Assembly: GCF_056712565.1 (NCBI RefSeq)
Contig: NZ_CM160072.1
Strand: one strand, 5' to 3'
Length of the DNA: 64,000 nt
How positions within the stretch are numbered: the first letter of the stretch is position 1; every line of letters starts with the position of its first letter. The notes under the pieces are model-generated. The model searched no databases. It was not told the DNA's origin and saw nothing but the letters and a program-made list of their open reading frames with translations. The translations under genes and the position numbers were made by a program. Below are positions 15,338 through 49,998 of this stretch, in pieces.

Positions 15338-15424
15338 GCTGAAAAACATAACCCATAAAATGCTAGCTGTACCAGGAACCACCTCCTTAGCCTGTGTAAT
15401 CTCCCTTACGCAGGCTTATTTTTT
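15338..15424 (+). ncRNA. cyaR: Hfq-dependent small RNA CyaR (RyeE); 3' terminator overlaps the prophage att core
   Basis: Sequence GCTGAAAAACATAACCCATAAAATGCTAGCTGTACCAGGAACCACCTCCTTAGCC followed by terminator hairpin and T-run, matching the CyaR sequence as I recall it. Confidence 0.8.
15398..15424. repeat. Prophage left attachment core (27 bp, AATCTCCCTTACGCAGGCTTATTTTTT)
   Basis: Near-identical copy (2 mismatches) of the 27-bp core at 49972..49998; embedded in the cyaR terminator. Confidence 0.8.
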
Positions 15425-15525
15425 ACGCGTAACACAATGAAATAAAAGGATTTATTTCTGGTCACGTCCACACATTGACCACATCGACAAAAAAGCCCCT
15501 CGACTGAGGGGCTTCCTGTTTGTAA

Positions 15526-15744
15526 TTACATCCACATAATTTGCTGCCCTGACGGCAACGGGTGCGGTCTTACGGCGTGGACTTCTCCCGGCTTCACGAT
15601 GTATCGCTGTACCGACTCATAAGTGATGAATGTGGCGCTGCAATTCACGTTCTGACACTGGTGATAACGCTCTTTTGTCGTGTCAGTGATATAGCGGCTT
15701 GTACGCGCATGTGCGGCATGCTGGCATAAAGGACAATGAAACAT
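15526..15744 (-). CDS. ogr: Late-gene transcription activator Ogr (zinc finger)
   Basis: 72-aa product MFHCPLCQHAAHARTSRYITDTT... with C-x2-C...C-x4-C; ORF-track start 15807 is upstream of the real ATG. Confidence 0.9.
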   Translation of the reverse strand: MFHCPLCQHAAHARTSRYITDTTKERYHQCQNVNCSATFITYESVQRYIVKPGEVHAVRPHPLPSGQQIMWM

Positions 15745-15825
15745 CGCGAGCACCTCTTCCGGTTTTGTTGATGGTGCTATTTTAGTTAATTTATCCTTAT
15801 AAAACAAATAGATAAAATAAAAACA

Positions 15826-16989
15826 TCACTCATCATCTTCTGTTTCGTACTCCACATCAGAAAGCCTGACCTCAAGCTCCAAGGACGTCGTGAAGCCGCT
15901 ATTATTCAGAAAATGTGTCACCTTAGTGATTGTCCAGTCCTGCTCGTCTATGACGCGCTTAAAGCCTGACACTTTAACCGGTGTTTCCGTGTAAATATCT
16001 GCCCGACCGGTAGCCAGGCTGATGGAGAACTCCGCAACGCCCCGTTGCAGCTTATCCCACTTCGCCTGAGCGGCGCGCATGGCCTGCGCTTTCGTGGCAT
16101 ATACCGCGGTCAGGGCAAAAACATTGTCAGCCTCACCTGCCATGTATTCACCTTCGCGCGCTTCCGGTACTTTTGGCGCTTTCTTCTGCGTGACTGGTTT
16201 CGCTTTCGGGTGCTCCAGTGCGCGCAGGTGTTTCTCTTTCTTTTTGCGTTTCAGTTTTACCTTCTGCTTTTGTGGCTTCGGGTCTTTGGTGTGTAACCAC
16301 TTTGCCGTTACGCCGGTATAGGCTCCACGGTCAGCAATCGCAAAATGATGGCGGTCGCCGTCGCTGCGGGTGATGGTAATCTGCGGGATTTTTTTACCGC
16401 TGGCCGTCACCCCCTGCCCCGCCTTGAGAAACAACAGTTTTCCCATTTTTACCGACACCTCACCGCCGTTGCGTTCAGCAAGGCGGGTCAGGAATTTTGC
16501 ATCAGACTCCTGCGACTGGTCGATGTGCGGGATTTTAATTCCGGCCAGTGACGGAGCGACACTGGCTTCCAGCCTGTTACGGGAGGCTATCGCTTCAACA
16601 ATCGCACCGAGCGTGGTGTCATGCCAGGAGCCTTCACGGCGGGAATTGAGCGTCCCGCGAAAATCTGCACTCCGGGCGCGGATGGTGACCACATCCGGTG
16701 CGCCCCGGTGTTCAACCTCATCAACGGTAAATTTCCCTTTGCATACCAGGGCAAAACCTTTCCAGCCGATATACACCGTCAGGACAGCGCCACGAACCGG
16801 CAGCCCGACCTGCCCGTCGGCATCGTTCAGTTCAATATCAAGCTGGTCAGCCTCAAAGCCCCGGTTATCCGTCAGGGTCATGCTCATCAGACGGTCGCTG
16901 ATATTGCCGGTAATATCCCTGTTGTCGAGCATCAGCATGTAATCCGGCGTCAGCGTACTGCCTGCATCAAATGTCAGTGCATCCAGCAT
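15826..16989 (-). CDS. D: Tail protein D
   Basis: 387 aa, P2 gpD size and position. Confidence 0.85.
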   Translation of the reverse strand: MLDALTFDAGSTLTPDYMLMLDNRDITGNISDRLMSMTLTDNRGFEADQLDIELNDADGQVGLPVRGAVLTVYIGWKGFALVCKGKFTVDEVEHRGAPDVVTIRARSADFRGTLNSRREGSWHDTTLGAIVEAIASRNRLEASVAPSLAGIKIPHIDQSQESDAKFLTRLAERNGGEVSVKMGKLLFLKAGQGVTASGKKIPQITITRSDGDRHHFAIADRGAYTGVTAKWLHTKDPKPQKQKVKLKRKKKEKHLRALEHPKAKPVTQKKAPKVPEAREGEYMAGEADNVFALTAVYATKAQAMRAAQAKWDKLQRGVAEFSISLATGRADIYTETPVKVSGFKRVIDEQDWTITKVTHFLNNSGFTTSLELEVRLSDVEYETEDDE

Positions 16990-17468
16990 TATCCCGCCCC
17001 CGTCATATCCGTGAATTTAGTCGCCATACTGCCAGCCTTACCGATGAGCGATTCTGCCTGTTTACCGATATCGCCATAAAGCGCGGCCAGTGATTCATCA
17101 ACGCGGGTGAGCGACAGCGTAAAATCAATTTTCCGGGGTGTGCCGTCTGCAAAGAAAATACTCCCTGTTTCACTCACCCTGCTGATGACATACATGCCGT
17201 AAATCATGCCGGTGCCATCCAGCAACGGCCACGCCCGGCCTTCCTCAGCCATCAGCCTGAGCGTGGTCATCGTCAGCTTGCCGCCGGTCAGTTCGGGATA
17301 AAGCACACCGGCAAGCGTGATATTTTCCTCGCCAACACCGAGAAACTGAAAGGCATCCCGTTTGCCGATACGGGAATTTGACGCCCAGCGATAATCTGAT
17401 TCACGCTGCATGGTCTGGTGTGGCAGCGTCTGGCGCATAAAAACAAACATACCTAACGCGAGCATCAT
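16989..17468 (-). CDS. U: Tail protein U
   Basis: 159 aa, P2 gpU size and position. Confidence 0.85.
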   Translation of the reverse strand: MMLALGMFVFMRQTLPHQTMQRESDYRWASNSRIGKRDAFQFLGVGEENITLAGVLYPELTGGKLTMTTLRLMAEEGRAWPLLDGTGMIYGMYVISRVSETGSIFFADGTPRKIDFTLSLTRVDESLAALYGDIGKQAESLIGKAGSMATKFTDMTGAG

Positions 17469-17482
17469 TTTTCGTCACCTCC

Positions 17483-19930
17483 TTAACCGTCATGCATCAT
17501 GCTGGCACGGGCGCGCGCACGTTTATCCCGCTCGTATTTTTCGAGCGCATCCTGTAACTGGCGGTCAAGCTGTGTCCCCGGCGCAGTACCACCCGTCAGG
17601 CTGATGTGATATTCGTTTTTACTCTGGTCCACATAAGAGCGGCCAGCCGGTGCCGTGACCGGCTGATAAGCCTGATAGCCTGCATAAGAGCTGGTCGCCG
17701 GAATATAACCACCGGTGCCATACGTGGCGGCATGAGTTCTGGCGGCGGTCTGGTCAAGTGTGTCTGACTCTTTGTTGATAACACCGAGTTTTTCCAGTAC
17801 CCAGTCAATACCGCTGCGCAGTTTGTTGAACGCATTAAGCGGCAGCATCAGCGCGTCAGCCAGTGCCTGCCCGAACATGACGCCCGTGTCACGGCAACGG
17901 TTCAGGGTGTCCCGGGTGGCTTTAACCGGAGCAATCAGGTTTGTAAACCACTGCCACGCGGCCTGTAACTTTTCGCCCAGCCAGTCAAACACCGGCTTAA
18001 GTGGCGTGAACAGCTCCCCCACCGGCGCAAATGCCGCTTTCAGCCCTTCAACCACACCGCCAAAGAATGCGCTGACAGGCTCCCAGTATTTACGGATAAG
18101 CAACGCCCCGGCGACAATGGCAGCCACCACGGCCACAACCGGCCAGCTAATCGCCCCGATGGCCGTCATAACAGCACTGCCAACCGTCGTGAAGATTGCC
18201 CCCATTGCGCCTGCTGCCGCGATAATAGCATTGATGCCGGTGATAACCGGCCAGGCTACGAGGCCAATGGCACCAATGATGCCAGTCAGCGCCAGTGCAC
18301 CACCGGCAATTAGGCCAATGGTTAACGCCAGTGATTTGTTTTTCTGGATCCAGCCGTCGAGTTTTAACACATACTTTGTGGCCGTCTGCGTGAGCTTACG
18401 CAGTGCGCCTTCCTGCTGGTCAAACAGGTCAGTCCCCACCGCCTCATAAGCGGACTGAAACTCCTTAAAGTCACCGCCGAGGTTGTCCTGCATGATATTT
18501 ACCAGTTCTGCGGTCTTTCCGTCTGAGGCTTTAAACGCAGCGGTCAGTTTGTCCAGCTTTCCGGTTGAGGCGGCAGTCATCAGCACGGCGGCGGCTGAAC
18601 TGGCCTCCTCCCCGAAAATGGTTTTCATGTATTCAGCCTGCTGGGCAGTACCGAGCCGGTTTTTCTCAAAACTGGCCTGCATTTCTTTCAGAATGGTAAA
18701 TACTGGTCGGGTGTTTCCCTTACTGTCTGAGGTTTTCACACCAAGCTCTTTGAGTGCATCCCATGCTTTTCCCGTCGGTGCCTGCAGGCGGCTTAACACG
18801 GCACGGCTTCCCGTTCCCGCCATTGAACCGGTAATTTTTGCATCATGCAGCGCCCCGACCATTGCGGCTGTTTCTTCAATGCTGACACCGGCATTTTTTG
18901 CCACAGGTGCGGCATAGGTCAGCGCATCGCTCATACCGTCAAAATCGGCGGCGGTTTTGTTCATCGTCATGGAGAGAACATCCCCGATATGAGCGACCTT
19001 ATCGTTTGAAAGCTGAAAGGCGGATTTCATCCCCATCAGCAGGGCGGCGTTTTCTTCCATCGTGCGGCGGTTCGCCAGCGCCATATTCAGCGTGACCGGC
19101 GTTGCCGCCTGAATGGCATCAACATCCCCACCGGCTTTCGCAATGATAATCTGCGCACCGGCAGCATCATCCGCCGAGGCGGCTGTGTTGTCGCCGAGCT
19201 GGCGCGCCTGTTTGCGTAGCGCGGCCATTTCGGCAGAATCTTTTGCCACACCGAGCACGGCCTGTAATTCTGAGTTTTTCTGCGCAAACTCATAACCGGG
19301 CATCAGCAGCTTAACACCGGCCATCGTTCCCGCCGCCGCAATCCCCACACCGGCAGCGCCCACTGAGGCCATATTTCCGGCCAGTTCCTTTCCGGCCTGA
19401 TAACGCTGTTTGACTGCGTTAAGTTTTGCCTGTTGCGCACTGACACGCGCCAGCGCGTCACGCTGCCGGTTAAGCTGGGCGGTGGTTTCACTGATACGGT
19501 TTTTCAGTCCCTGCTCATCATGTGCAAGATTGCGGGTATTAATTCCCACAGCGGCCAGTTCCCGCTGCTGGCGTTTAACGGAATCTGTCAGGCGGTTATA
19601 TTTCGCCTGTAAGTCCTCCGCCGCACGCTTTGCGGATTCCAGCACTTTCGCCTGAGCACGGGTCGGGCGTTCGGTGTTTTTAAACTGTGTGGCAAGGGCT
19701 TCGGCCTGCTGCCGTGCCTTTTCAAGTGCATGACCAGTCACGGCGAGCTGTGCACTGGTCTTGCGGAATCCCTCAATACGGGATGCGTGACCGTTCAGCT
19801 CGCGCAGTGATTTTTGTGTTTCCCGGATATCCCCCGACAGCAACTTACTCGCTGTGCGGATGGATTTAAACGGGCGGGACGCCTGGTCAACAGCCCTGAG
19901 CAATACCTGTAATTTTACATTGTTACTCAT
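17483..19930 (-). CDS. T: Tail tape-measure protein T
   Basis: 815 aa, Ala/Gly-rich with coiled-coil N-terminus; P2 gpT size. Confidence 0.88.
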   Translation of the reverse strand: MSNNVKLQVLLRAVDQASRPFKSIRTASKLLSGDIRETQKSLRELNGHASRIEGFRKTSAQLAVTGHALEKARQQAEALATQFKNTERPTRAQAKVLESAKRAAEDLQAKYNRLTDSVKRQQRELAAVGINTRNLAHDEQGLKNRISETTAQLNRQRDALARVSAQQAKLNAVKQRYQAGKELAGNMASVGAAGVGIAAAGTMAGVKLLMPGYEFAQKNSELQAVLGVAKDSAEMAALRKQARQLGDNTAASADDAAGAQIIIAKAGGDVDAIQAATPVTLNMALANRRTMEENAALLMGMKSAFQLSNDKVAHIGDVLSMTMNKTAADFDGMSDALTYAAPVAKNAGVSIEETAAMVGALHDAKITGSMAGTGSRAVLSRLQAPTGKAWDALKELGVKTSDSKGNTRPVFTILKEMQASFEKNRLGTAQQAEYMKTIFGEEASSAAAVLMTAASTGKLDKLTAAFKASDGKTAELVNIMQDNLGGDFKEFQSAYEAVGTDLFDQQEGALRKLTQTATKYVLKLDGWIQKNKSLALTIGLIAGGALALTGIIGAIGLVAWPVITGINAIIAAAGAMGAIFTTVGSAVMTAIGAISWPVVAVVAAIVAGALLIRKYWEPVSAFFGGVVEGLKAAFAPVGELFTPLKPVFDWLGEKLQAAWQWFTNLIAPVKATRDTLNRCRDTGVMFGQALADALMLPLNAFNKLRSGIDWVLEKLGVINKESDTLDQTAARTHAATYGTGGYIPATSSYAGYQAYQPVTAPAGRSYVDQSKNEYHISLTGGTAPGTQLDRQLQDALEKYERDKRARARASMMHDG

Positions 19931-20350
19931 TCGTGTTTCCGCTTCGCCTGAGCGCCTTTTCGCGCCATGTGATGAGTTCGGTCAGGCTCATGGGATACAG
20001 TTCTGATGGCGGCCAGTGAAATATCACTGCCACATCCGCCATCAGGTCATCGACCGACAGATTTTTCGGAAGCGTCACTGCACCGAGTTCGGCGACAAAA
20101 AACCGACCACCTTACCGGCCAGCGCCACAAGGTCAGGCAGTTCCAGCGCGGCGACTTCCTGCTCGGTCAGCATCGGTGCCGTCATGCGCGGCAGCACCTT
20201 AATCAGTGCATCGACTTCGGAGTTCGCGACCGCAGCCAGACTGACACCGCGCAGCGTCCCGGCATTAGGTTTCATCAGCGTGACCTGTTCGATAACCTGC
20301 TCACCACGCTTGACCGGATTGTCCAGGGTAATCACATTTTCTTTGTTCAT
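19924..20350 (-). CDS. E': Tail assembly chaperone E+E' (-1 programmed frameshift product)
   Basis: -1 frame after TTTTTTG (20096..20102) stays open to a TAA at 19924..19926 that overlaps the T start codon (ATGAGTAA). Confidence 0.75.
20075..20350 (-). CDS. E: Tail assembly chaperone E
   Basis: 91 aa between T and FII; ends just after the slippery heptamer. Confidence 0.85.
   Translation of the reverse strand: MNKENVITLDNPVKRGEQVIEQVTLMKPNAGTLRGVSLAAVANSEVDALIKVLPRMTAPMLTEQEVAALELPDLVALAGKVVGFLSPNSVQ
20096..20102 (-). other. Slippery heptamer T_TTT_TTG for the E/E' -1 frameshift
   Basis: Complement of caaaaaa at 20096..20102, in frame as G-F-L within the gpE C-terminus. Confidence 0.75.
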
Positions 20351-20406
20351 GGTTTTCTCACTTCTGAATCGGGGTTAACCGGTCAGCCAGGCTGACCGGA
20401 TGAAAA

Positions 20407-20925
20407 TCACAGGCCGATATTGCGGCGGTGTTGCTCCAGCCGGTCGACGCCGTTCACCTTCTCAATCATGTTGATGGTGTCGATTTCGACCAGCTCCTTA
20501 CCGTCCATCGTCAGCCGGAAATAGGTGCAGACCACGGAGATTTTCGACTCGGTGTCTTCTCCCTGTTTGCCCTCGCCGGTGTCGATTTCTTTCTGACGTC
20601 CACGCATGACCACCTCGACGGCCACCGTTTCGCCGGTATCGTCGCGCTGGTAAGAGCCTGCAAAACGAATCGGTACGGAATCCACACCGGTTGCGGCGTA
20701 AAGCTCCCAGATAACCGAATCCGGGAAGCCACCGAGCGACCACTCCATTGACAGCGCATCGTCATCAAGGCCGAGGTCTACCGGTGCGCTGCCGTTCATC
20801 CCCGCACCGCGATAGTTTTCGAGCTTACGGGTCAGTTTTGGTAGCGTGACGGACTTCGCGACGCCCTGATAGCTGTAGCCGTTCAGAAAGACGTTCATTA
20901 ACTTGAGTTTGCGCGGCATTGCCAT
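20407..20925 (-). CDS. FII: Tail tube protein FII
   Basis: 172 aa, P2 gpFII. Confidence 0.88.
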   Translation of the reverse strand: MAMPRKLKLMNVFLNGYSYQGVAKSVTLPKLTRKLENYRGAGMNGSAPVDLGLDDDALSMEWSLGGFPDSVIWELYAATGVDSVPIRFAGSYQRDDTGETVAVEVVMRGRQKEIDTGEGKQGEDTESKISVVCTYFRLTMDGKELVEIDTINMIEKVNGVDRLEQHRRNIGL

Positions 20926-22130
20926 CGGTCAGGCTCCTTATAATTGCTGTTAACCGAGGTGACCAGATTTGCCAGGTATTTATCGGTAATACGCTGGCGC
21001 AGGGTCAGGTTTTCAAGAGGAGGCACCGGTGTATAGTCGTAGTCGATATACAGTTTTCCGGCCTTGAGGGTTTCCGCATCGTTGGATTCTTCGCTGAACC
21101 AGCAGGTCGCATCCACGATATAGCCGTTTGTTTTCAGCTCACGGAATTTGGCATTGATGCCGTCAACGATGTCGCGAATCAGCGTTGCGGTGATGGGCTT
21201 GTCCACCGCCCACATGTGCGCCTCAGCCATCGTGTCAGCCAGTACCTGCGCGGTGCGGGTGTAGTTTTCAAAGAGGAACAGCGGGTCATCAGAGCAGGTA
21301 CGGTTACCCCAGAATCGGAAACCGTCGCGGCGAATCAGCGTAGTGACGCCTGACTCGTTAAGCAGGTCAGCATCGGTGCCGGACTCCTGCAAATCCCAGA
21401 ATACAGATGCGCTGATGCCGGTAACACCGTTTACCCCGACGTTGGACAGCGTTTTATGCCAGCCCTGCTCCTGGTCGATTTTAGCGCGCAGACCCAGCGC
21501 ACGGGCGGTGGCATACGCGGTAGCGGTGGTACTGGTGACCGTATCCCATGCGAGGAAATCCGGCCAGATGACCATCAGCTCACGCTGGCTGAAATTCTGG
21601 CGGTAGGCTTTCACCTCGGAAATGGTCTTACAGCCCCATGCGCTGATATATCCGAAAGCGCGCAGCTTCTGACAGACGGATGCCAGTGCAACAGCCACCT
21701 CTTTGGTATCCAGTCCCGGCACACCGAGAATACGCGGTTTAACACCGGTTACCGACTCCGCCGCCAGCAGGGCTTTTAGTCCGGTGTACTGACCGTTTTC
21801 GTCGGTGGTGCCGATGATATTGGAAACGGTCTGCGCGAGTTTCGTTTCCTCGTCATCACCGGTGCAGTCTTCCACGCGCACGACAACGGTGACCGGTTTT
21901 GACTGGTCAGCGATGGCCTGCAACGATGCCGCCAGCGTGCCTTTTTTACCGGCCTTTGCAATTGCGCTTTGCACATTGGTAATCAGCACCGGTTTATTGA
22001 GGGGGAAGGTTTCCGCATCCGCATCGCTGGCCGTGCAGACCATGCCGACAATGGCAGTGGATACGGTGGAAATGACGCGGGTGCCGTCGTTAATCTCCAG
22101 CACCTGCACGCCATGATGATAGTCACTCAT
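20898..22130 (-). CDS. FI: Contractile tail sheath protein FI
   Basis: 410 aa starting MSDYHHGVQVLEINDGTRV. Confidence 0.88.
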   Translation of the reverse strand: MSDYHHGVQVLEINDGTRVISTVSTAIVGMVCTASDADAETFPLNKPVLITNVQSAIAKAGKKGTLAASLQAIADQSKPVTVVVRVEDCTGDDEETKLAQTVSNIIGTTDENGQYTGLKALLAAESVTGVKPRILGVPGLDTKEVAVALASVCQKLRAFGYISAWGCKTISEVKAYRQNFSQRELMVIWPDFLAWDTVTSTTATAYATARALGLRAKIDQEQGWHKTLSNVGVNGVTGISASVFWDLQESGTDADLLNESGVTTLIRRDGFRFWGNRTCSDDPLFLFENYTRTAQVLADTMAEAHMWAVDKPITATLIRDIVDGINAKFRELKTNGYIVDATCWFSEESNDAETLKAGKLYIDYDYTPVPPLENLTLRQRITDKYLANLVTSVNSNYKEPDRWQCRANSS

Positions 22131-22222
22131 CCGTTTAACTCCGTGGTTAATGGGTACAACTATTTTCTGTTGTGCAGAGCATAAGACGCTATTTGACCTG
22201 GCTGGTCAGTGGATGAAACAAC

Positions 22223-22253
22223 AGATAAAGAAAAGGCGGGCAATTCGCCCGCC
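22223..22253 (-). terminator. Rho-independent terminator between cargo region and the FI operon
   Basis: 7-bp GC stem ggcgggc/gcccgcc with a T-run on the minus strand (complement of agataaagaaaa). Confidence 0.5.
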
Positions 22254-22460
22254 TGTCCTGATTTGTACTCACTCATTTTCCGCCTGACAATTTACATAGC
22301 CCAAATGCTATCAAACCTGACAGTCTGCTTTGAGCGAAAAGTGGACATTAGAGTTACAAAAGCAAGTTTAAATCATCCAAAATATTACAATGTCCTTATC
22401 TATCTGATATCGTTATGATAAAAAGCTCCTGAATATAATCGATAGTAGGTGGTTATTTCC

Positions 22461-22838
22461 ATGAAATCAATTTTAGAGGTCTTTACTCAAGGAAATACTA
22501 AAGAAAAACTGGCTGTTATCGCCGATCTCACAACCATTGCGGGAATATCGATTGCAACTATTATTGCTGGTTTGTTAACCCTAGTTGCAAAAACAGATAA
22601 ACTAGATGTTGGAAATCTGTTTGGAGTTGTCATAATATCTCTGCTCGGATTGGCTGGTGTTTGCTGTTTTGTGGCCTTATTTATTTGGGTTATAACCCAA
22701 ATGTCTAAACCATGGGGAACACCTCGGGGGGTTCAGCCCTTAGTTAAGTGTGCTATTTCCCTTATCTTTATCTGTATGTTTTTGCTGGCTGTCTTTACAT
22801 TTTATGAGTTTATTTCTTCGATGAGCATACGCTATTGA
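22461..22838 (+). CDS. Small hydrophobic membrane protein (3 predicted TM helices), prophage cargo
   Basis: ORF 22449..22838; likely start ATG 22461 (MKSILEVF) with AGGTGG RBS; AT-rich. Confidence 0.6.
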   Translation: MKSILEVFTQGNTKEKLAVIADLTTIAGISIATIIAGLLTLVAKTDKLDVGNLFGVVIISLLGLAGVCCFVALFIWVITQMSKPWGTPRGVQPLVKCAISLIFICMFLLAVFTFYEFISSMSIRY

Positions 22839-22860
22839 ATATAAAATCAGCCCCCATAAC

Positions 22861-23445
22861 TTAAAAGAGACCTTCTATATCGACTTCAATGCCCAAATAA
22901 CGGACTGTGCTTTCCAGTTTCTTATGGCCCAACAGAAGTTGGATCACCCGGAGACTCTTGGTTTTCTTGTAGATTAAGTAAGGTTTTGTTCTTCTCATGG
23001 AATGTGTGCTGTACAGCGAATCTTCGAGACCAAGCTTTTCTACCCACCCATGAAAAATTCGGTTGTATTGCCGGGTTGATATATGGTGGTTAGTTCCGAC
23101 CCGAGAGCGGAACAGGAAGCCTTTACTATGCCAGTTGCCGAGCTTTATCAATGCAGTAACCGCTTCCCTTGTCCCTTTGGTTATCTCAAATTGGACAGGG
23201 CTGCCGGTTTTCTGTTGCAACACCGTTGCTCTGCTTGAGACAGAACTGCCATATGCAGCATCTGATACTTTGAGTTTGACCAAATCACAGCCCCGTAGCT
23301 TAGTGTCCAAAGCCATGTTGAACAGAGCTAGATCGCGTGTTTTACCTTCCAACTCAAGTCTAATCCGGATCCCCCAGATATGAAATATCTGAAGTGGCCT
23401 TTTTTGACCGATGGTACGGTCTTTATTCCACGGTGACGTTTTCAT
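22861..23445 (-). CDS. Small tyrosine recombinase (phage-integrase family, FimB/FimE-sized)
   Basis: C-terminal catalytic signature HSMRRT...LLGHKKLESTVRYL (R, H-x-x-R, Y); likely start ATG 23445 with AGGAGA RBS giving 194 aa. Confidence 0.7.
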   Translation of the reverse strand: MKTSPWNKDRTIGQKRPLQIFHIWGIRIRLELEGKTRDLALFNMALDTKLRGCDLVKLKVSDAAYGSSVSSRATVLQQKTGSPVQFEITKGTREAVTALIKLGNWHSKGFLFRSRVGTNHHISTRQYNRIFHGWVEKLGLEDSLYSTHSMRRTKPYLIYKKTKSLRVIQLLLGHKKLESTVRYLGIEVDIEGLF

Positions 23446-24275: not shown

Positions 24276-24280
24276 TTGTC
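24276..24280. repeat. IS2 target-site duplication, TTGTC (copy 1)
   Basis: 5 bp immediately flanking the IS2 terminus, identical to 25612..25616. Confidence 0.85.
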
Positions 24281-24291
24281 TGGATTTGCCC

Positions 24292-26679: not shown

Positions 26680-26682
26680 AAA

Positions 26683-34556: not shown

Positions 34557-34559
34557 GCG

Positions 34560-36115: not shown

Positions 36116-36118
36116 CGG

Positions 36119-41254: not shown

Positions 41255-41273
41255 GTGCTTTCCCCGCCTCGCC
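41255..41273. other. cos site (19-nt cohesive-end sequence, complement of GGCGAGGCGGGGAAAGCAC)
   Basis: Exact match to the P2 cohesive-end sequence as I recall it, between Q and the right-hand cargo gene. Confidence 0.8.
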
Positions 41274-41588
41274 CGCCCGCTTCATGGGGCGGTTTTAATG
41301 CAGTTGCATGATGAAACTGAAATCACATCAGCACTGACCGAAACTGACAAAAAGAATAGTATCTGACACATGCAAAAACACGCACTTAATATACGCCTAT
41401 CTATAGCTCCTACAGGATTGTCAAAAAACGACCAACTCGTCATAGCGTAAACACATTTGGCTCAACGAACACTTACGTTATATGCCTCTTGAACATATCA
41501 AAGTCTTAAGGTAGATCTTTACCACTAAGTGGCTATATTAAGCTGCTTTTTTACATACAATAAAAGCTTTATCGTATGAGGCATAAAA

Positions 41589-43805: not shown

Positions 43806-43833
43806 GCCGCATATTATCGTTTTGGGTAAGAAC

Positions 43834-43853
43834 GACGGTGCTTACGCACCGTC
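43834..43853. terminator. Possible hairpin between convergent ATPase gene and gene A
   Basis: 8-bp stem gacggtgc/gcaccgtc with 4-nt loop; no clear T-run. Confidence 0.3.
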
Positions 43854-44028
43854 TCCCAACGCCCAAAGCGGTAGCGGTTGTACTGGCGTACATTCACTAG
43901 CTTTAACATGAGGCAATCTCCATGCCAGCACTATTGTTGCCAATAGCAGCCTTTATACCCTTTGTACAAAGCTAATACCAAGAGTAATGCAAAGTAGATG
44001 TCCCAAGCGGTAACGGGGCTATTCTATG

Positions 44029-46320
44029 TCAAACACAGAAAAAATCAAAGCGCCCTATGAATCCCCCCCAACCATCAGCGACCGGATACGTGAATTTTTT
44101 CCCGTCATAATTTACGGTCGCTCCACGCGCCAGCGCCTCAAGCTCCCATCGCTGCGGCATGATACCGTTCTGAGCAAGGTCAACGCGGATACGGGTGATT
44201 TGCAATCGTTCAGACCTGGTCAGTCTGGCAGATGGTGCAATTTCATGCGGTTTTAACGGGCTTCCGTTTCTTTGCTGACGGTTTGGCGTTCTCAGGTCGT
44301 ATTTTAATGCGCCCCTGAGCGCCCTCACGACCTCCGGTTCATTCCATTCAATAACACCGTCATCAACCAGATTAAGCACTGCTGCGGCGTGCTCAGAAGG
44401 TGTGGGAGCCGGTAACGAAGTATCACCACCGGTGAGCTTTCCACAGTTATTGACAGGACTCCGAGGCGCGGCGATGCCGCTTTTTAAAGTCAAAGGCTCA
44501 ACGACCGGAACTTTCGGCACAATGCGCCAGTCCGTCGTTCTGGTGATATGAATATGACGCGCGCCGAGATGCGGCGCGTAAATGCCGACCACTCTCTCGA
44601 CTTCTTCCTCGTACTCGTTAACGTCATCCGACGGGCTACGGGCAACCCTGACAGTCTGACAATCGCGCGGGACATTTGCCCCACCCTGCGCGCTGATATA
44701 CAACGCAAAATCACCACTGTCTGCGGCAGCGCGAGCAGCCTCGACGCGTTCGTCAAACTCATCAGCAATACTGACGCCGCGAGGCAATTTGCGTAGTTCA
44801 CGGTAAGCCCCCATTGTCGGCAGGCCAACCGTTTTAAATTGCGGAATTCGCCACGTTGACGCCCATGCGGTAACAGCCGCAGCAGTATCTTTCAGCGGCC
44901 TGCCGGTATCATTATCGAGCTGACCATCCAGTGCATAGCCATCGATGTTTTTTGAGATGTATTTTGCGATATACCCCGCAGCACCGCCCCGGTTAAGATG
45001 TTTTGCCTGAAAACGGTTTCGCGCGGCTCCTCTTTCGTCGCCATCCTCTTTGAGCGCATAGCGACGCATGATTTCGATAATCTGGTTACGCTGGCGTGGA
45101 TTACAAAAAAGCATCATATGCCAGTGCGGCGTTCCGTCGTGGTGTGGCTCGACGACACGCAAACCGTAGACCTGTAAATCATTATCCTTGAATGCCGTGC
45201 GCATCAGGCTCCAGATATGGCAGAGATAACGCTGCGCATCCTTTGGATTAAATGCCTCATCGTTCCAGCCGTGATTTAGCTGGACGGTTTTACTTTCGCC
45301 TTTTCCGACCTGACGTGTCGGGTGATACTTTGACGGCGCGGTAAGCGTGATAAACATCCCCACATCACCCTCTGCGGCGGCGTAACGCTCAATACCGGCA
45401 ATGGTGTTCATCAGCTCCATCCGGCGAATTTCAGGATTAGAAATACTGCCCATCACCTTACTGATAAGGTCGATGCGTTCGCCGGTTTCCCTGTTTTCAA
45501 GGTCACACGATTTAAGAAATTCCAGATTTGCCTGGCGGCGTGCACGCACATCACGAATGGCATGTTTACTGGCATAAGGTGAACGGTCTTTATTGACCTC
45601 CCCGACAGCAATCAGTAACGCCTCATGCCAGCGCATACGCTGGCCTTTAAGCTGACTAATCCACCACTCATCGTTAAACAGGCGGGCAATGGCAGAATAT
45701 GCCTGCCTCGTGGTCATCTGTCCTTTACGGTATTTTTTCCAGTAGAGCGGGGAAATATTGAAAGCACGTGCAGCGCCAGCAACATGACCATAGAGGTGAG
45801 CCTGCGCCTCATCCGTAAACAGCGATTCTTTTTCGCCATGCGCATCCACCCAGGCATCGCAGAGTTCCTCATACATCATGAAAAGCTGCGATGAGATACG
45901 GGCGGCAAACTTTTTCAGCTCCTTATCATTCATCCCCGGCAGACGCGCATAATGGTCACGCTCTGCCAGAAACAGCAACGACGCGTCGGTGTTCATTTCA
46001 TGGCGCTGATTCACACGCTCAATGCGCGGCCATAAACGACGCTGAAAAGTGGATGTGAGGAAATAAAACCCGTGCACCGGGCTTTTATTGCGCCGGATGT
46101 AGTCATAGCGTGAAGTAAACAGCGAGCGCAAAAAGTAAGGCAGGCGGTTAATCGTGGATAAAACACCTTGCACCTGACGCATCTCGTCACGTGTAAGGGG
46201 TCTTTCGCGCCCGACGGCCTCGCGTGGCGCGTTCCATGCATAAGCACCGGTAAACGTCTTACCGGTGCCTGCGGTAAATGCTGACGGAGGGACAAAACGC
46301 CCGGAGGCTTTAACGGCCAT
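44029..46320 (-). CDS. A: Replication initiation protein A (rolling-circle nickase)
   Basis: ORF 44029..46362; probable start MAVKASGRF at 46320. Confidence 0.88.
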   Translation of the reverse strand: MAVKASGRFVPPSAFTAGTGKTFTGAYAWNAPREAVGRERPLTRDEMRQVQGVLSTINRLPYFLRSLFTSRYDYIRRNKSPVHGFYFLTSTFQRRLWPRIERVNQRHEMNTDASLLFLAERDHYARLPGMNDKELKKFAARISSQLFMMYEELCDAWVDAHGEKESLFTDEAQAHLYGHVAGAARAFNISPLYWKKYRKGQMTTRQAYSAIARLFNDEWWISQLKGQRMRWHEALLIAVGEVNKDRSPYASKHAIRDVRARRQANLEFLKSCDLENRETGERIDLISKVMGSISNPEIRRMELMNTIAGIERYAAAEGDVGMFITLTAPSKYHPTRQVGKGESKTVQLNHGWNDEAFNPKDAQRYLCHIWSLMRTAFKDNDLQVYGLRVVEPHHDGTPHWHMMLFCNPRQRNQIIEIMRRYALKEDGDERGAARNRFQAKHLNRGGAAGYIAKYISKNIDGYALDGQLDNDTGRPLKDTAAAVTAWASTWRIPQFKTVGLPTMGAYRELRKLPRGVSIADEFDERVEAARAAADSGDFALYISAQGGANVPRDCQTVRVARSPSDDVNEYEEEVERVVGIYAPHLGARHIHITRTTDWRIVPKVPVVEPLTLKSGIAAPRSPVNNCGKLTGGDTSLPAPTPSEHAAAVLNLVDDGVIEWNEPEVVRALRGALKYDLRTPNRQQRNGSPLKPHEIAPSARLTRSERLQITRIRVDLAQNGIMPQRWELEALARGATVNYDGKKFTYPVADGWGGFIGRFDFFCV

Positions 46321-46585
46321 ATGAGCCAAAAGCCTCTGAACAACGCTTGCTGAGTTGCTCAACCTGCGCGTTTAAATCAGCAAAAGACTTTGCGCTTCCG
46401 GTCAGAATATCGTGATGCATCAGGCCGGAAACGAGCTGGCTTAATTTCGGGTAATAACCAACCACCGCCAGCCATTCCTGACCGGCGTTTTTACCGCTTT
46501 CCGCTCTCTTTTTCTCGTGGAGAATAAACTGAAAGCTGTCACTGGTAACGACATAACGTTCGCCAATTTCAATACGAATACTCAT
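46310..46585 (-). CDS. Small early-region phage protein (P2 orf83 position)
   Basis: 91-aa ORF between B and A. Confidence 0.6.
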   Translation of the reverse strand: MSIRIEIGERYVVTSDSFQFILHEKKRAESGKNAGQEWLAVVGYYPKLSQLVSGLMHHDILTGSAKSFADLNAQVEQLSKRCSEAFGSYGR

Positions 46586-46806
46586 GCCGTTCTCCGGTAA
46601 TGTTTGTTTTTTGCTTCAAAGACTGACTGACAGGAAACACAACGCGTGGCTGACGGATAAGCCGCACGACGGGCAGCAGGTATTGGCGCGTCACACTCTT
46701 CGCAAACCAGCGCAGAAGCACCGCAATGTTTTACCCTTGCCGCGTTAATCTGGCGCTCCAGTAATTCAGCCTGTTGTTCCTGAATAAAATCTACGTTGTC
46801 CGGCAT
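46582..46806 (-). CDS. TraR/DksA-type C4 zinc-finger protein (P2 orf82 position)
   Basis: 74 aa with CEEC...C-x2-C. Confidence 0.65.
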   Translation of the reverse strand: MPDNVDFIQEQQAELLERQINAARVKHCGASALVCEECDAPIPAARRAAYPSATRCVSCQSVFEAKNKHYRRTA

Positions 46807-46808
46807 TA

Positions 46809-47111
46809 TCAGCTCCTTTTATCGTTAAGTTTCCTGGATACATCAGCGCAATAACTGGCAAGTTCTGTCGTTAATTTTGTCAGTTCATCCACTGAGGAAA
46901 TTTGCTTGTGGAATACAGCGCGTTTAACAAGTAAATTGACCACATCAGACAGGAGGTTTAATTCATTCTGATAAATCGCGATAACAGATTCAGTGATGTC
47001 GCGTTTTTCTTTATCAAGACAAAGTTGAATAAGAGACAAATCGCCATTTTTCATAACGGCGATTTTTAAGGCGTTATTCAGTAATACAACTGAATGAGAA
47101 CAGGACATCAA
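46809..47111 (-). CDS. Small early-region phage protein (P2 orf81 position)
   Basis: 100-aa ORF. Confidence 0.55.
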
Positions 47112-47332
47112 AGTACCTCCCCGCGAGACAATCCGATATTGTGAAATTTTTCCGACTCCTGACTGAGCAGCTCGACTATCTCCACGCGGGATAACTCCGC
47201 CTTTGTGATATGGCGAATCATGGCGTCAAGATGAGAAGAAAAGCGCGTCGCAGCGTCGGCCTGTGCTTCGGTTCTGGCCTGTTGCAGCAGTAATGCGTAT
47301 TTACCGCACTGATTTTCAGAAACTGTATGCAT
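47108..47332 (-). CDS. Small early-region phage protein (P2 orf80 position)
   Basis: 74-aa ORF. Confidence 0.55.
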
Positions 47333-47395
47333 GACTTTCTCCGGGCAAAAAGAAGCCCCGCACGATTAAGCGCGTTAAAAACTCTGGTTAATTAC

Positions 47396-47902
47396 TTAAT
47401 GCAGATATTGCTCTGGTTTTACCGACGTCAGAATTGTCGGTGCATACTCAAACAGACTGAATAATTCACGTAATGCACGGAATAAAGCATCACGCCAGTA
47501 ACATGATTCCTCATTAATTCGCCAGTATGGCTGGTTAAATTCTTTTTCTGTCAGTCGTGCGTGCATAAATAAAGTGCGACGCTGACTGACTGTTAAAAAA
47601 CTAATATATGCATACTCACTTGCGCCAACCTGACGGCGTTTTGAGAATGCCCCACGCAACTCATCAATTGCACATACCAGTCGTTCACGTTCGACGTCGT
47701 TCATTTCTTCAAAACGCATCGTTGCGTGACGCTGTTTTAACTGCGCATGAAAGCAAACCGTTAGCCGTTCGCGCTCCATCATCTGATTATAATAATCACA
47801 TGTATCCTGCCAGCGAGGAACGGCAAGATGCTTACCAATTATCCGGCGCATAGCTGCTGGCTGTTTTTCAACGAGATTGAGCGTCATCACTGTCATTTCC
47901 AT
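47396..47902 (-). CDS. B: Replication protein B (helicase loader)
   Basis: 168 aa. Confidence 0.85.
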   Translation of the reverse strand: MEMTVMTLNLVEKQPAAMRRIIGKHLAVPRWQDTCDYYNQMMERERLTVCFHAQLKQRHATMRFEEMNDVERERLVCAIDELRGAFSKRRQVGASEYAYISFLTVSQRRTLFMHARLTEKEFNQPYWRINEESCYWRDALFRALRELFSLFEYAPTILTSVKPEQYLH

Positions 47903-48087
47903 ACCCTCCGGCTTTTCAGAAAGGTCAGAGCCTTTTTTAACGGACTCTGTTTTTTGGTGCGGATAATGATTCCCTTACGCCCCTTACCGTGGGTGATGGT
48001 GAAGTCAATCGCCCTGGGGCTTTCGTTACGCAATAACTGAGCAATACAACGAGGCTCGTTCATACGGTTCTCCTTAACGTGGTTCAC
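47893..48087 (-). CDS. Small protein (P2 orf78 position)
   Basis: 64-aa ORF between cox and B. Confidence 0.55.
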   Translation of the reverse strand: MNHVKENRMNEPRCIAQLLRNESPRAIDFTITHGKGRKGIIIRTKKQSPLKKALTFLKSRRVWK

Positions 48088-48349
48088 CGAGACCTAACCA
48101 CATCAACCAGCCGTCACGAATCTCTTTAGGGCGGCTTTCATAAGCCAGTTTTAGTCCGTTATTCCATGCCGGAAGGTATACCCAATATTCACCTGCACGA
48201 CCTGAAGCTGATTGTGGATCGGTCATATCAATTACAGGCAGCTTTCCTTTATCGATCATCCGACGAACCGCTCCTGTCGATTTTCCTATTAGTTTTGCGA
48301 ACTCCTGATAAGGAATCGCATCAGTCATGAGTGTTACTTGCTTGCTCAT
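48074..48349 (-). CDS. cox: Cox (excision directionality factor and Pc repressor)
   Basis: 91 aa starting MSKQVTLMTDAIPYQEFAKLIGKSTGAVRRMIDKGKLP. Confidence 0.88.
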   Translation of the reverse strand: MSKQVTLMTDAIPYQEFAKLIGKSTGAVRRMIDKGKLPVIDMTDPQSASGRAGEYWVYLPAWNNGLKLAYESRPKEIRDGWLMWLGLGEPR

Positions 48350-48463
48350 GTCGTCCCCCAGCCCTCATGAATTGCGTTTAATGCCTTATAATGCCTTTTA
48401 GTGCCCACATCCAAGCACTAAACAATCTACATCTAAACTAAATACCATTGAGATCTAAACACC
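48350..48463. promoter_or_regulatory. Immunity switch region (divergent early and repressor promoters with operator direct repeats)
   Basis: Intergenic between divergent cox and C; direct repeats catctaaac / gatctaaac about 22 bp apart. Confidence 0.5.
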
Positions 48464-48763
48464 ATGTCAAACACGATAAGCGAGAAGATAGTCTTAATGC
48501 GAAAATCAGAGTATTTGAGCAGACAACAACTTGCTGATTTAACAGGGGTTCCGTATGGCACGCTGAGTTACTATGAAAGTGGTCGTTCAACACCTCCAAC
48601 AGATGTCATGATGAACATCCTGCAGACCCCACAATTCACCAAATACACTTTATGGTTCATGACCAATCAGGTCGCTCCTGAGTCCGGGCAAATTGCGCCC
48701 GCTCTCGCACACTTTGGGCAAAACGAAACAACGTCGCCCCACTCCGGTCAAAAGACTGGTTAA
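48464..48763 (+). CDS. C: Immunity repressor C
   Basis: 99 aa starting MSNTISEKIVLMRKSEYLSRQQLADLTGVPYGTLSYYESG. Confidence 0.88.
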   Translation: MSNTISEKIVLMRKSEYLSRQQLADLTGVPYGTLSYYESGRSTPPTDVMMNILQTPQFTKYTLWFMTNQVAPESGQIAPALAHFGQNETTSPHSGQKTG

Positions 48764-48878
48764 CAATTTATCGTGAATATATTCATCACAAGTGCCTACT
48801 ATTGGTGGCTAAATTTCAGCCACCACGAAAAAAGCGATTAGTAGTAGCAAAAAAAAGTACCACTCGGAGGGTTTTCTG

Positions 48879-49892
48879 ATGGCAATCAAAAAACTCGATG
48901 ATGGTCGATATGAAGTGGACATCCGCCCTACTGGACGTAACGGAAAACGCATCCGTAGGAAGTTTGATAAGAAAAGCGAAGCTGTCGCTTTCGAAAAATA
49001 CACGTTGTACAACCACCACAATAAAGAATGGCTATCAAAACCAACAGACAAACGACGTCTGTCGGAACTGACACAGATCTGGTGGGATTTAAAGGGTAAA
49101 CACGAAGAGCATGGGAAATCTAATCTTGGAAAAATTGAAATCTTCACAAAAATAACGAATGACCCATGCGCATTTCAAATCACGAAATCCCTTATCAGCC
49201 AGTACTGCGCCACCCGAAGAAGCCAGGGTATTAAACCTTCGAGTATCAATCGTGATTTAACATGTATTAGCGGCATGTTTACAGCCCTGATTGAAGCGGA
49301 GTTATTCTTTGGTGAGCACCCTATCAGAGGGACAAAGAGGCTTAAGGAGGAAAAACCAGAAACAGGCTATCTCACACAGGAAGAAATTGCCTTACTGCTT
49401 GCAGCACTTGACGGCGACAATAAAAAGATTGCGATTCTTTGCCTGAGTACAGGAGCACGTTGGGGAGAAGCAGCTCGTTTGAAAGCAGAAAATATCATCC
49501 ATAACCGCGTCACGTTTGTTAAAACGAAAACAAACAAACCACGCACCGTCCCGATTTCAGAGGCTGTTGCCAAAATGATCGCGGATAACAAACGAGGTTT
49601 TTTATTCCCTGATGCTGATTACCCTCGCTTCAGACGAACAATGAAAGCAATAAAACCGGATTTGCCAATGGGGCAAGCCACACATGCACTAAGGCACAGC
49701 TTTGCCACTCATTTCATGATTAATGGAGGAAGTATTATCACGCTACAACGGATACTAGGTCACACGCGGATTGAGCAAACTATGGTTTACGCTCATTTTG
49801 CGCCAGAGTACCTTCAGGACGCCATTTCTCTTAATCCGCTAAGAGGTGGTACTGAGGCCGAGAGTGTCCACACAGTGTCCACAGTAGAGTAA
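48879..49892 (+). CDS. int: Integrase (tyrosine recombinase)
   Basis: 337 aa; catalytic R...HALRHSFATHF...GH...YAH; adjacent to att core. Confidence 0.9.
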   Translation: MAIKKLDDGRYEVDIRPTGRNGKRIRRKFDKKSEAVAFEKYTLYNHHNKEWLSKPTDKRRLSELTQIWWDLKGKHEEHGKSNLGKIEIFTKITNDPCAFQITKSLISQYCATRRSQGIKPSSINRDLTCISGMFTALIEAELFFGEHPIRGTKRLKEEKPETGYLTQEEIALLLAALDGDNKKIAILCLSTGARWGEAARLKAENIIHNRVTFVKTKTNKPRTVPISEAVAKMIADNKRGFLFPDADYPRFRRTMKAIKPDLPMGQATHALRHSFATHFMINGGSIITLQRILGHTRIEQTMVYAHFAPEYLQDAISLNPLRGGTEAESVHTVSTVE

Positions 49893-49971
49893 CGTTTAAG
49901 GGCTTTCAGTGGTAATTTATGCCGCTCAAACCCGCATTGTACCGTTGAAAGCCCCTACTGGTGACACCCTA

Positions 49972-49998
49972 AATCTCCCTTACACGGGCTTATTTTTT
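49972..49998. repeat. Prophage right attachment core (27 bp, AATCTCCCTTACACGGGCTTATTTTTT)
   Basis: Matches P2 att core; paired with 15398..15424. Confidence 0.8.

Follow-up and report, generated by a model that had tools for sequence, protein, structure and literature searches.

A P2-type prophage at the 3' end of cyaR with both cargo slots occupied and an uncertain ability to spread

A P2-type (Peduovirus) prophage occupies positions 15398-49998 of the window, defined here as the whole 64,000-nucleotide stretch analyzed (assembly GCF_056712565.1, contig NZ_CM160072.1), and lies between yegQ/cyaR and yegR. It is of an ordinary kind and has already been catalogued. Its ends coincide with two 27-nucleotide att cores (15398-15424 and 49972-49998), which makes the coordinates in the earlier note exact; that note was also correct in identifying a P2-like prophage with a complete gene set, cos, att, int, C, and cox. 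Both of the att cores it named are present, but they are not identical and differ at two central positions. The int-side core matches the P2 attP core exactly, while the ogr-side core, AATCTCCCTTACGCAGGCTTATTTTTT, has two central mismatches to it. The same variant core is found at this junction in 24 of 28 IMG/VR contigs, together with many different P2-like phages. When the empty site is rebuilt by joining the left flank, the core, and the right flank, 882 complete E. coli genomes carry it as one contiguous sequence, NU14 being one example.

The cyaR (ryeE) small RNA gene is located at 15336-15421 on the plus strand, where Rfam RF00112 scores 100.2 bits over model positions 1-85 of 85. The terminator of the gene doubles as the left att core, and the prophage therefore sits at the 3' end of cyaR with the gene regenerated intact. 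P2 Int would have placed the prophage at this terminator, which is the classical locI site. The IHF site and the Int P-arm binding site (15423-15487, minus strand) contain a P arm identical to that of P2, and the part nearest the IHF site is a natural variant similar to that of deposited phage P22H1. At the other end, the Int P' arm, the Cox boxes, and the int-side core (49858-49998) are all identical to P2 attP. The adjoining host flank (50011-50050) is similar to the P2 P arm, at 75% across 40 nucleotides, and it looks like the relic of an older P2-like junction in attB because empty sites carry it too.

The gene order is the same as in P2 (NC_001895 / AF063097), and DNA identity is 96.5-98% for the greater part of the backbone, with 84-91% in the tail-fibre region. 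None of the 37 genes of the P2 backbone is shortened, and with the exception of the variable tail fibre H they share 89-100% amino-acid identity with P2. Each has an ATG start and a stop codon and is free of internal stops. The P2 genes orf30, fun(Z), orf91, tin, and old are missing, all of them non-essential. Relative to a nine-phage panel there are 34 private amino-acid changes, mostly conservative. The prophage further differs from P2 in its P22H1-type PF region, 14 added FI residues, a Pe -10 of TGGTAT, other cargo in both slots, and an IS2 element.

The late activator gene ogr (15526-15744, minus strand) encodes 72 amino acids that are 100% identical to P2 Ogr. It is followed by the F operon tail genes D, U, T, E/E+E', and FII (15826-20925, minus strand), which have P2 lengths and a slippery site for the E/E' frameshift identical to that of P2. 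The PF late promoter region (22131-22313, minus strand), with a TGT-N12-CCA activator site at approximately 22203-22220, is divergent from P2 and almost identical to P22H1. The V operon genes G, H, I, J, W, and V span 26152-31838 on the minus strand. The H tail fibre is 909 amino acids in length, compared with 669 in P2, from which its C-terminus differs; it is 97.6% identical to that of phage 899. The S-V intergenic region (31839-31904, minus strand) contains the PV activator site, has one mismatch relative to deposited phages P22H1 and 899, and is empty of orf30, the third accessory slot of P2.

The O operon genes O, N, M, L, X, Y, K, lysA, lysB, lysC, R, and S (31905-38105, minus strand) all have P2 lengths. 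The divergent PO/PP late promoters (38106-38278) share an activator site (38185-38215) identical to that of P2, and are followed by P (terminase ATPase) and Q (portal) at 38279-41085 on the plus strand. The 19-nucleotide cohesive-end sequence of cos, GGCGAGGCGGGGAAAGCAC in P2 orientation (41255-41273), is also identical to P2. The early operon of cox, orf78, B, orf80-83, and A spans 44029-48349 on the minus strand, with Cox and the ori nick region near 44462 the same as in P2. The C repressor and int lie at 48464-49892 on the plus strand; C differs from P2 at one of 99 residues, the immunity type is the same, and int encodes a protein 100% identical to P2 Int.

This content is consistent with a fully functional temperate phage in which the Pe, FI, and IS2 changes described below are neutral or tolerated. 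Such a phage would excise with Int, Cox, and IHF, replicate, package its 34.6 kb from cos to cos, and transmit both cargo loci and IS2. No essential gene or cis site is lacking, the late promoters match those of deposited phages P22H1 and 899, and the att junctions are a normal Int product with a core heterology common to many lysogens. This reading, which is the one the earlier note put forward, is a credible possibility, though not the expected one.

Cargo is present in both slots, as the earlier note had claimed, at 22347-26066 (Z/fun) and 41303-44058 (old/tin). These are exactly the two hotspots described for P2-like phages by Rousset et al. 2022 (PMC9122126), by Moura de Sousa et al. 2026 (bioRxiv 10.64898/2026.02.27.708500), and in the iLund4u hotspot-annotation preprint (bioRxiv 10.1101/2024.10.15.618418). 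As in those accounts, the content is a single gene or small cassette with defence-type domains. Neither cargo is among the validated systems named in the sections consulted.

The Z/fun slot contains a 125-amino-acid predicted membrane protein (phrog_4155; 22461-22838, plus strand), a 194-amino-acid tyrosine recombinase (22861-23445, minus strand; Pfam PF00589, 65 bits), and a DUF5677 gene with IS2 inside it. The recombinase consists of the catalytic domain only, with R, K, HxxR, H, and Y all present. A hairpin (23443-23481) spans the start codon and ribosome-binding site of the recombinase gene, and relatives with at least 90% identity are found in non-P2 elements. The DUF5677 gene (23552-25730, minus strand) would encode 280 amino acids if intact and is broken by IS2 after approximately codon 38. 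The IS2 insertion into cargo reported in the earlier note is real: the element is 1331 bp long (24282-25612, minus strand), has terminal inverted repeats and overlapping transposase frames (136- and 301-amino-acid ORFs), and is bordered by a 5-bp target duplication, TTGTC (24277-24281 and 25613-25617). PADLOC returned no match for the Z/fun cargo. The locus reads as a three-gene cassette in which IS2 has inactivated the DUF5677 gene.

The slot is bounded by two palindromes. Site B, on the FI side (22314-22346), reads GTCCACTT TTCGCTCA AAGCAGAC on the minus strand, and site A, on the G side (26067-26099), reads GTCTGCTC TGTGCTAG GAGCGGAC on the same strand. Sites A and B also border defence cassettes that adjoin homologous small recombinases in other mobile elements.

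The old/tin slot contains a 738-amino-acid RloC-type ABC ATPase and anticodon-nuclease homologue (41589-43805, plus strand). It has a Walker A motif (GQNGCGKS), a CPFC motif, and an R-X3-E-X39-SH triad, and it matches Pfam AAA_13 (374 bits), PADLOC PDC-S06 (845 bits), and the PrrC C-terminus. One source names it a "wobble nucleotide-excising tRNase". It resembles RloC (Davidov & Kaufmann 2008, PMC2610378) in its size, its ABC ATPase motifs, the CXXC (here CPFC) within a long insert, and the C-terminal R-X3-E-X39-(S)H triad. Unlike RloC, it is phage-borne rather than beside a restriction-modification locus, and PADLOC files it only as the candidate system PDC-S06. Abortive infection by tRNA cleavage is its likely mode of action.

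The earlier note held that the only evident lesion was in cargo, and proposed whole-genome comparison with P2 as a check. That comparison finds no internal stops or frameshifts; it does find the FI stop codon lost and the Pe -10 hexamer changed, and the claim is not borne out.

The tail sheath gene FI (20898-22130, minus strand) encodes 410 amino acids, compared with 396 in P2. In the alignment, a 2-nucleotide TA insertion converts AATTAA to AATTATAA and destroys the stop codon. The reading frame of the resulting C-terminal addition of 14 residues, YKEPDRWQCRANSS (20898-20942), runs through the start codon and ribosome-binding site of FII, both of which are kept intact, as is the whole native protein. 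FI has a homologue in the R2 pyocin sheath (3J9Q, E = 1e-63), and their alignment reaches almost to the FI C-terminus. Contractile-tail sheath subunits are joined via N- and C-terminal arms (PMC10329688), and the 14 residues are added directly after the C-terminal arm linking the subunits. The extension may be tolerated: it lies past the native C-terminus, with no native residue lost, which favors a functional phage. Its exact form is found on 706 contigs and is therefore at least not under strong counter-selection in the host. Against a functional phage, the insertion is present in 15 of the 1545 E. coli genomes with this region (approximately 1%) and in none of the 74 deposited phage records carrying it.

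The Pe/Pc switch with operators O1 and O2 (48367-48470) has a Pe -10 of TGGTAT where P2 has TAGTAT, an A-to-G change at the second hexamer position (48446). The switch also departs from P2 at one point within the Pc spacer and at two points within the cox ribosome-binding site. For sigma-70, no promoter base matters more than the second one of the -10 hexamer, which weighs against a functional phage. So does its distribution: TGGTAT is present in 18 of the 404 E. coli genomes with the region (approximately 4%) and in none of the 10 deposited phage records with it. The change also creates a TGn motif ahead of a TATTTA hexamer at a shifted position, and some activity might be kept.

With IS2 the prophage genome is 34,574 bp, 2.9% above P2. 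This is 767 bp above the largest (33,807 bp) of the 60 closest deposited relatives among the matches listed (28.9-33.8 kb), and the greater length than all 60 counts against a functional phage. A length excess of 2.9% is tolerated by cos phages such as lambda. Viable P2-like phages with a complete IS and target duplication also exist, namely fiAA91-ss, a 33,628-bp genome with IS21 in its early region, and KS5 of Burkholderia, with ISBmu23; both were isolated as particles.

The Pe -10, the FI stop, and the length with IS2 are three derived, lineage-restricted changes that touch essential functions or packaging. None is a proven knockout, and the ability of the prophage to spread is uncertain in view of them. 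The somewhat favored reading is a vertically inherited P2-type prophage, most likely in early decay, with the making of infectious particles reduced or lost. Against decay, no gene is truncated or internally frameshifted, and the private amino-acid changes are for the most part conservative.

The annotated HS13-1 prophage (NZ_CP026491, 900197-933227) is identical but for four SNPs over 42 kb, and differs in lacking IS2 and having the DUF5677 gene intact. HS13-1 and approximately 15-60 other RefSeq genomes have the same locus, cargo, 410-residue FI, and Pe variant. Carriers listed are mostly K1/APEC-type strains, and the chromosomal junction is the same in those examined, which counts against a functional phage. 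Vertical inheritance, judged by strain names and by junctions in common, and accompanied by stepwise decay, fits better than active spread. It is favored because the Pe variant is common to the grossly deleted APEC O1 prophage and because the exact IS2 junction is found in 0 of 5,426 complete E. coli genomes, a result that also speaks against a functional phage. Under early decay, cargo would move mainly with the chromosome or by recombination, not by infection. Immunity (C) and both accessory loci should still be expressed in the lysogen.

The decayed APEC O1 prophage (NC_008563, 2259357-2282420) occupies the same locus, with the same Pe variant and identical Int, C, Cox, D, and U proteins. 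It differs in that the O-to-J region is gone, ISEc12 lies between FI and H, and a DprA locus fills its old/tin slot. The lineage's copy therefore decays in place. A locked-in cryptic prophage, with Pe or FI already a full knockout, would be kept only for what the lysogen expresses, namely immunity, an RloC-type defence, and perhaps assistance to P4-type satellites. The loss of the conserved A in Pe, the altered structural end used in the sheath mesh, and the sharing of the Pe variant with a relative that later lost head and lysis genes agree with it, and the APEC O1 pattern fits a lineage no longer selected for lytic growth before the split. This reading is nevertheless improbable, since long-lost lytic function predicts more frameshifts and stops over 30 kb of late genes, where none are seen, and the private substitutions are few and conservative. 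The DprA locus in the APEC O1 old/tin slot likewise argues against it, as the lineage has therefore still recombined with other P2-like phages.

The element is of a known kind and is essentially already annotated: it is a P2-type prophage at the cyaR site. The extent claimed in the earlier note, 15398-49998, is exact and corresponds to the outer ends of the two 27-nt att cores. In a megablast search of deposited phages, Peduovirus genomes match positions 15398-40000 at 95-97% identity over approximately 85% of the query, and the unmatched 15% is the cargo of the Z/fun slot. With P2 (NC_001895), the backbone is for the most part 96.5-98% identical, as against 84-91% for the tail-fibre region. 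The breaks in homology coincide exactly with the two classical accessory slots and with orf30, the third P2 slot, which is empty in this prophage. The chromosome of E. coli HS13-1 is collinear with the window, with 4 SNPs in 42 kb, with the exception of a 1,336-bp insertion in the window. There is already ample documentation of P2-type prophages at this site, of the two cargo hotspots, and of frequent partial decay, and dozens of RefSeq genomes carry an annotation of the same element; the prophage as such is therefore of small importance.

Gene order is collinear with P2. A tblastn search with 42 P2 proteins identified 37 backbone genes at full length, with the essential head, tail, lysis, replication, and lysogeny genes all present; five non-essential P2 genes are absent. 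The 37 proteins show homology from residue 1 and have ATG starts and proper stops, and careful alignment found no frameshift or internal stop in any of them. Lengths are those of P2 with the exception of H (909 residues versus 669), FI (410 versus 396), orf81 (99 versus 100), and A (763 versus 761). H is 97.6% identical to the phage 899 tail fibre over its full length, and the C-terminus of A differs in length from phage to phage. The E+E' fusion is open and its slippery site is identical to P2. Compared with a panel of nine deposited phages, the prophage has 34 private amino-acid changes in approximately 8,000 residues. These are mostly conservative, the less conservative being E308V in N, V63E and H101Y in V, and G89C in FI.

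Several cis-acting sites are identical to P2, namely the 19-nt cos between Q and the old/tin slot (41255-41273), tQ, the PP/PO activator site, the lysC attenuator, and the ori nick region. Late promoter sites of the Ogr-dependent TGT-N12-ACA type precede P, O, V, and F. The PV and PF regions are unlike P2 but are one to three bases from those of the P2-like phages P22H1 and 899, and the motif TGT-N12-(A/C)C(A/C) is kept.

The prophage had been described as apparently intact, with the IS2 in its cargo as the sole evident lesion. The gene content largely supports this description, but the sole-lesion claim is wrong: base-level alignment shows that the FI stop codon and the -10 hexamer of the early promoter Pe are also altered. 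A full gene set is not the same as an intact prophage; these two single-site changes, both in essential functions, surfaced only through base-level alignment and population frequency.

FI encodes the tail sheath. In P2 and all phages examined, the gene ends in AGC AAT TAA GGAGCC, while in the window and in HS13-1 the sequence reads AGC AAT TAT AAG GAG CC. The inserted TA lengthens FI by YKEPDRWQCRANSS, or 14 extra residues, and the read-through passes over the ribosome-binding site and ATG of FII. Among 1,545 E. coli genomes, a 71-nt probe matches the exact variant in 15; among 74 phage records it matches none. The R2 pyocin sheath (3J9Q, E = 1e-63) is a homologue of FI, and the alignment stops at most 4 residues before the pyocin C-terminus. 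In addition, the C-terminal strand of the sheath docks on its initiator (PMC5924787). A large protein collection has the exact 410-aa protein on 706 contigs, in keeping with a common clone.

The early promoter Pe reads TTGACA-17-TAGTAT in P2 and P22H1. In the window and HS13-1 the -10 hexamer is TGGTAT, with the change at position 48446. The operators, the -35, and the -10 of the repressor promoter Pc are unchanged in the C-Cox switch; the Pc spacer differs at one position and the cox ribosome-binding site at two. The exact 71-nt Pe sequence is present in 18 of the 404 E. coli genomes with this immunity region and in none of 10 phage records. In sigma-70 promoters the critical, flipped-out A occupies this second position of the hexamer, so the change is a candidate promoter-down lesion for cox, B, and A. 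Alternatively, a shifted extended -10 (TGgTATTTA) may still serve.

Carriers of the FI and Pe variants overlap, with at least 13 strains carrying both among the matches listed. The listed carriers are mostly of the K1/APEC type and include O1:K1:H7 and O2:K1:H7 APEC isolates, SF-468, and a cerebrospinal-fluid isolate. They are presumably of the ST95 type. The strain APEC O1 contains the Pe variant with identical Int, C, Cox, D, and U at the same locus. Its prophage (NC_008563, 2259357-2282420) is decayed: O through J are gone, ISEc12 lies between FI and H, and a DprA locus occupies the old/tin slot. APEC O1 thus shares the Pe variant with the window but has a different old/tin cargo, and cargo has been exchanged on a common early-region backbone. 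The DprA locus is of the DprA-PRTase type validated by Rousset et al.

The simplest history by sequence would begin with a resident prophage that gained the Pe change, after which the lineages split. One branch, that of APEC O1, would have undergone gross decay. The other would have gained the FI change and then, in the window's strain alone, IS2. The observed states fit vertical inheritance with stepwise erosion. That 30 kb of late genes are free of frameshifts points to recent erosion or to persisting selection.

A small island between yegP and yegQ (window approximately 10665-13404) encodes DUF4034, DUF1266, and PcfJ-domain proteins according to the HS13-1 and APEC O1 annotation. In APEC O1 this island has an extra hypothetical protein and the DUF4034 gene is frameshifted. 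We take the island not to be part of K-12.

The IS2 element, a member of the IS3 family, is 1331 bp in length. It has imperfect terminal inverted repeats with ends TGGATTTGCCCC... and ...GGGGCCAGTCTA, two overlapping transposase ORFs of 136 and 301 aa, and a 5-bp target duplication (TTGTC), and it matches annotated IS2-family transposase. The IS2 junction was found in none of 5,426 complete genomes. With IS2 the phage genome would be 34,574 bp, and without it 33,238 bp; P2 is 33,593 bp. The 60 closest records listed share at least 97.8% identity in a capsid gene, and the complete genomes among them are 28.9 to 33.8 kb long.

P2 sig5 is reportedly a viable P2 phage with an IS2 insertion. IS carriage is not in itself disqualifying: the P2-like phage fiAA91-ss carries IS21 and KS5 carries ISBmu23 (PMC3091744). 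Of these, fiAA91-ss serves as a precedent that P2-like genomes bearing an IS can be packaged. In fiAA91-ss (NC_022750, 24553-26522), an isolate from urban raw wastewater, IS21 istA/istB is present in place of cox, and cdt-V occupies the old/tin slot. Escherichia phage vB_EcoM-720R8 (34,824 bp) was considered as a size precedent for the packaging of 34.6 kb and dropped. This record, a 'partial genome', includes the host genes yegR, yegS, and the gat repressor, and is therefore a predicted prophage with host flank.

The att cores are located at 15398-15424 and 49972-49998. A synthetic empty site, composed of the left flank, the core, and the right flank, is contiguous in 882 complete genomes. 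We take the integration site at cyaR to be P2 locI. A complete cyaR (ryeE) sRNA lies at 15336-15421 in the yegQ-proximal intergenic region (Rfam RF00112, 100.2 bits versus a gathering score of 47). By this Rfam placement the core overlaps the 3' end of cyaR, so that the core is the cyaR terminator and integration rebuilds the gene. The order in K-12 is cyaR-ogrK-yegR (PMC9765468). No difference from P2 attP is seen on the int side in the core, the P' arm, or the Cox boxes, nor on the ogr side in the P arm; the IHF-proximal 17 nt on the ogr side are unlike P2 and near those of phage P22H1.

Positions 13 and 15 distinguish the two cores (ACGCAGG versus ACACGGG). This heterology was considered as a block to excision and rejected. 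At the cyaR-side junction, 24 of 28 IMG/VR contigs have the variant core, which adjoins a wide variety of P-arm sequences. Its two variant positions fall in the stem of the cyaR terminator, opposite a base of the other strand that is itself polymorphic, GCCTG(C/T)GTAA. Because it recurs with many phages and lies in the terminator stem, the variant core is a normal host polymorphism, and is read as a host allele kept on the host side of the crossover; it is neither damage nor a bar to the reverse reaction. No attP with the variant core beside a P' arm was found in IMG/VR, and the empty site of NU14 has the P2-type core. Past the int-side core, the host flank at 50011-50050 resembles the P2 P arm (75% over 40 nt). 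Empty sites have this sequence as well, so that attB appears to be what is left of an older P2-type junction.

The contents of both slots can be better defined, one as a putative RloC-type anticodon nuclease and the other as a recombinase-bearing cassette with its DUF5677 gene disrupted by IS2. The old/tin slot (41303-44058) encodes a single 738-aa protein. Its best match is the PADLOC candidate PDC-S06 (845 bits), with the PrrC model covering residues 490-730, and it also matches Pfam AAA_13 (374 bits). The N-terminal portion contains the ABC ATPase motifs GQNGCGKS (Walker A), LSEGEK (signature), and IVIDDP (Walker B). A CPFC motif is located approximately 220 residues past Walker A and well ahead of the signature, in a long insert; it is a candidate for the CXXC zinc hook that RloC has in a coiled-coil insert splitting the ATPase head. 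The RloC triad is defined as R-X3-E-X36-52-H, often with a Ser before the His (PMC2610378), and the C-terminal RNILE-X39-GSH of the 738-aa protein agrees with this definition. One source names the protein 'wobble nucleotide-excising tRNase'. By these motifs, cargo 2 is a putative RloC-type anticodon nuclease. A signal from infection or DNA damage would be sensed by the Rad50-like head, which would then release anticodon cleavage and likely abort the infection. Structure-based naming was dropped because a sequence search found no PDB relative. The DNA of neither cargo was found in deposited phages, with the exception of a 79% partial match of cargo 2 to Enterobacter phage ENT4.

Cargo 1, in the Z/fun slot (22347-26066), encodes a 125-aa membrane protein, a 194-aa tyrosine recombinase, and a 280-aa DUF5677 protein. 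The DUF5677 gene is split by IS2 near codon 38 and is knocked out. PADLOC returned no matches for the three proteins. One preprint reports that DUF5677 is enriched beside defence-associated recombinases.

The 194-aa recombinase matches Pfam PF00589 (Phage_integrase) at 65 bits, beginning at residue 35. Its catalytic residues, assigned by eye, are LRGCD, QQKTG, HSMRR, GH, and RY, corresponding to R-K-HxxR-H/W-Y. A core- or arm-binding N-terminal domain was not found, and XerC/XerD models match only by their C-terminal halves. Relatives of 200 aa with at least 90% identity are present in a chromosomal island, a lambdoid prophage, a conjugative-plasmid-like contig, and many viral contigs. A 15-nt inverted repeat (23443-23481, 93% complementary, 9-nt loop) spans the ribosome-binding site and start codon of the recombinase gene. 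It is kept with the gene elsewhere, at approximately 85% over this stretch within a 621-bp block at approximately 90%. The placement and conservation of this hairpin suggest translational control.

The Z/fun slot is bounded by inverted 33-nt repeats at 22314-22346 and 26067-26099. Each contains a palindrome of two 8-nt arms and an 8-nt spacer. Site A, on the G side, is GTCCGCTC-TGTGCCAG-GAGCGGAC, and site B, on the FI side, is GTCCGCTC-CTCGCTCA-GAGCGGAC, with the same arms and a different spacer. All 11 of the P2-like genomes compared, which between them carry at least 8 unrelated cargos, retain both sites. The outer arms go with the backbone and the inner arms vary with the cassette, divergence starting right at the inner arms. 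The boundary sites match no Rfam family, CyaR being the sole Rfam match in the prophage. Their fold z-scores in the window are unremarkable (-1.9 and -0.4) and there is no T-run; known RNA families and strong terminators were rejected on these grounds.

The same sites are present in non-P2 elements, where A...B and B-42 nt-A arrays delimit modules around 200-aa tyrosine recombinase homologues consisting of the catalytic domain only. They are located at positions 4436, 7648, and 8704 of locus L035, at 1781, 2955, and 2997 of L049, and at 2917, 8257, and 8299 of L052. Near the recombinase homologues there are 2.0-2.8 sites per 10 kb; the sites are absent from the window's 29 kb of host DNA, and a P2-like genome contains approximately two. 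Breakpoints between otherwise identical modules are at or adjoining the spacers. Modules next to the homologues include Old, PD-T7-1, Septu PtuA, HEC-08/DUF3644, and a HEPN protein, and the window's Z/fun cargo includes a copy of this small recombinase.

A contig scan of 298 Gb for GTCCGCTC-N8-GAGCGGAC (16 specified bases) gave at least 120 matches. Among the matches listed, most are chance palindromes in unrelated taxa, and eight Enterobacterales sites are informative. The site A and site B sequences were not found printed in the papers searched.

If the recombinase acts on these sites, the result would be a natural form of recombinase-mediated cassette exchange. A and B, having unlike spacers, could not recombine with each other, so exchange would be allowed and excision would not. 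We tentatively consider, while thinking it doubtful, that the mobile elements of Enterobacterales have a wider system of cassette exchange, so far undescribed, and that the Z/fun hotspot is one of its docking points. Alternatively, the palindromes are REP-like hairpins rather than exchange sites. Against a dedicated exchange system, most P2 slots are without a recombinase, and in the chromosomes of Cedecea and Enterobacter some ordinary operons end in palindromes that share the arms and have A- or B-type spacers, with no recombinase nearby. Also counting against it, the predicted pre-insertion joint across the 11-nt direct repeat CTGACAGTCTG was found in none of 5,426 genomes. Cassette exchange, if it is the correct reading, would explain the fast swapping of defence cargo among P2-like phages, lambdoid prophages, plasmids, and islands. 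Two recent papers on hotspots put forward no site-specific mechanism, and in the recent literature this turnover is described and not explained. The boundary palindromes and the small recombinase beside known defence genes provide a concrete, testable candidate mechanism of hotspot turnover, and this cassette-boundary observation is the only part that might repay work.

A degenerate site, ACAGTCCAAACCAGACTGTCAGCTTTGAT, is located at 25960-25990, approximately 80 nt inward from site A. It repeats the outer arm and flank of site B in direct orientation, so that imperfect direct repeats of approximately 23 nt lie on either side of the recombinase module.
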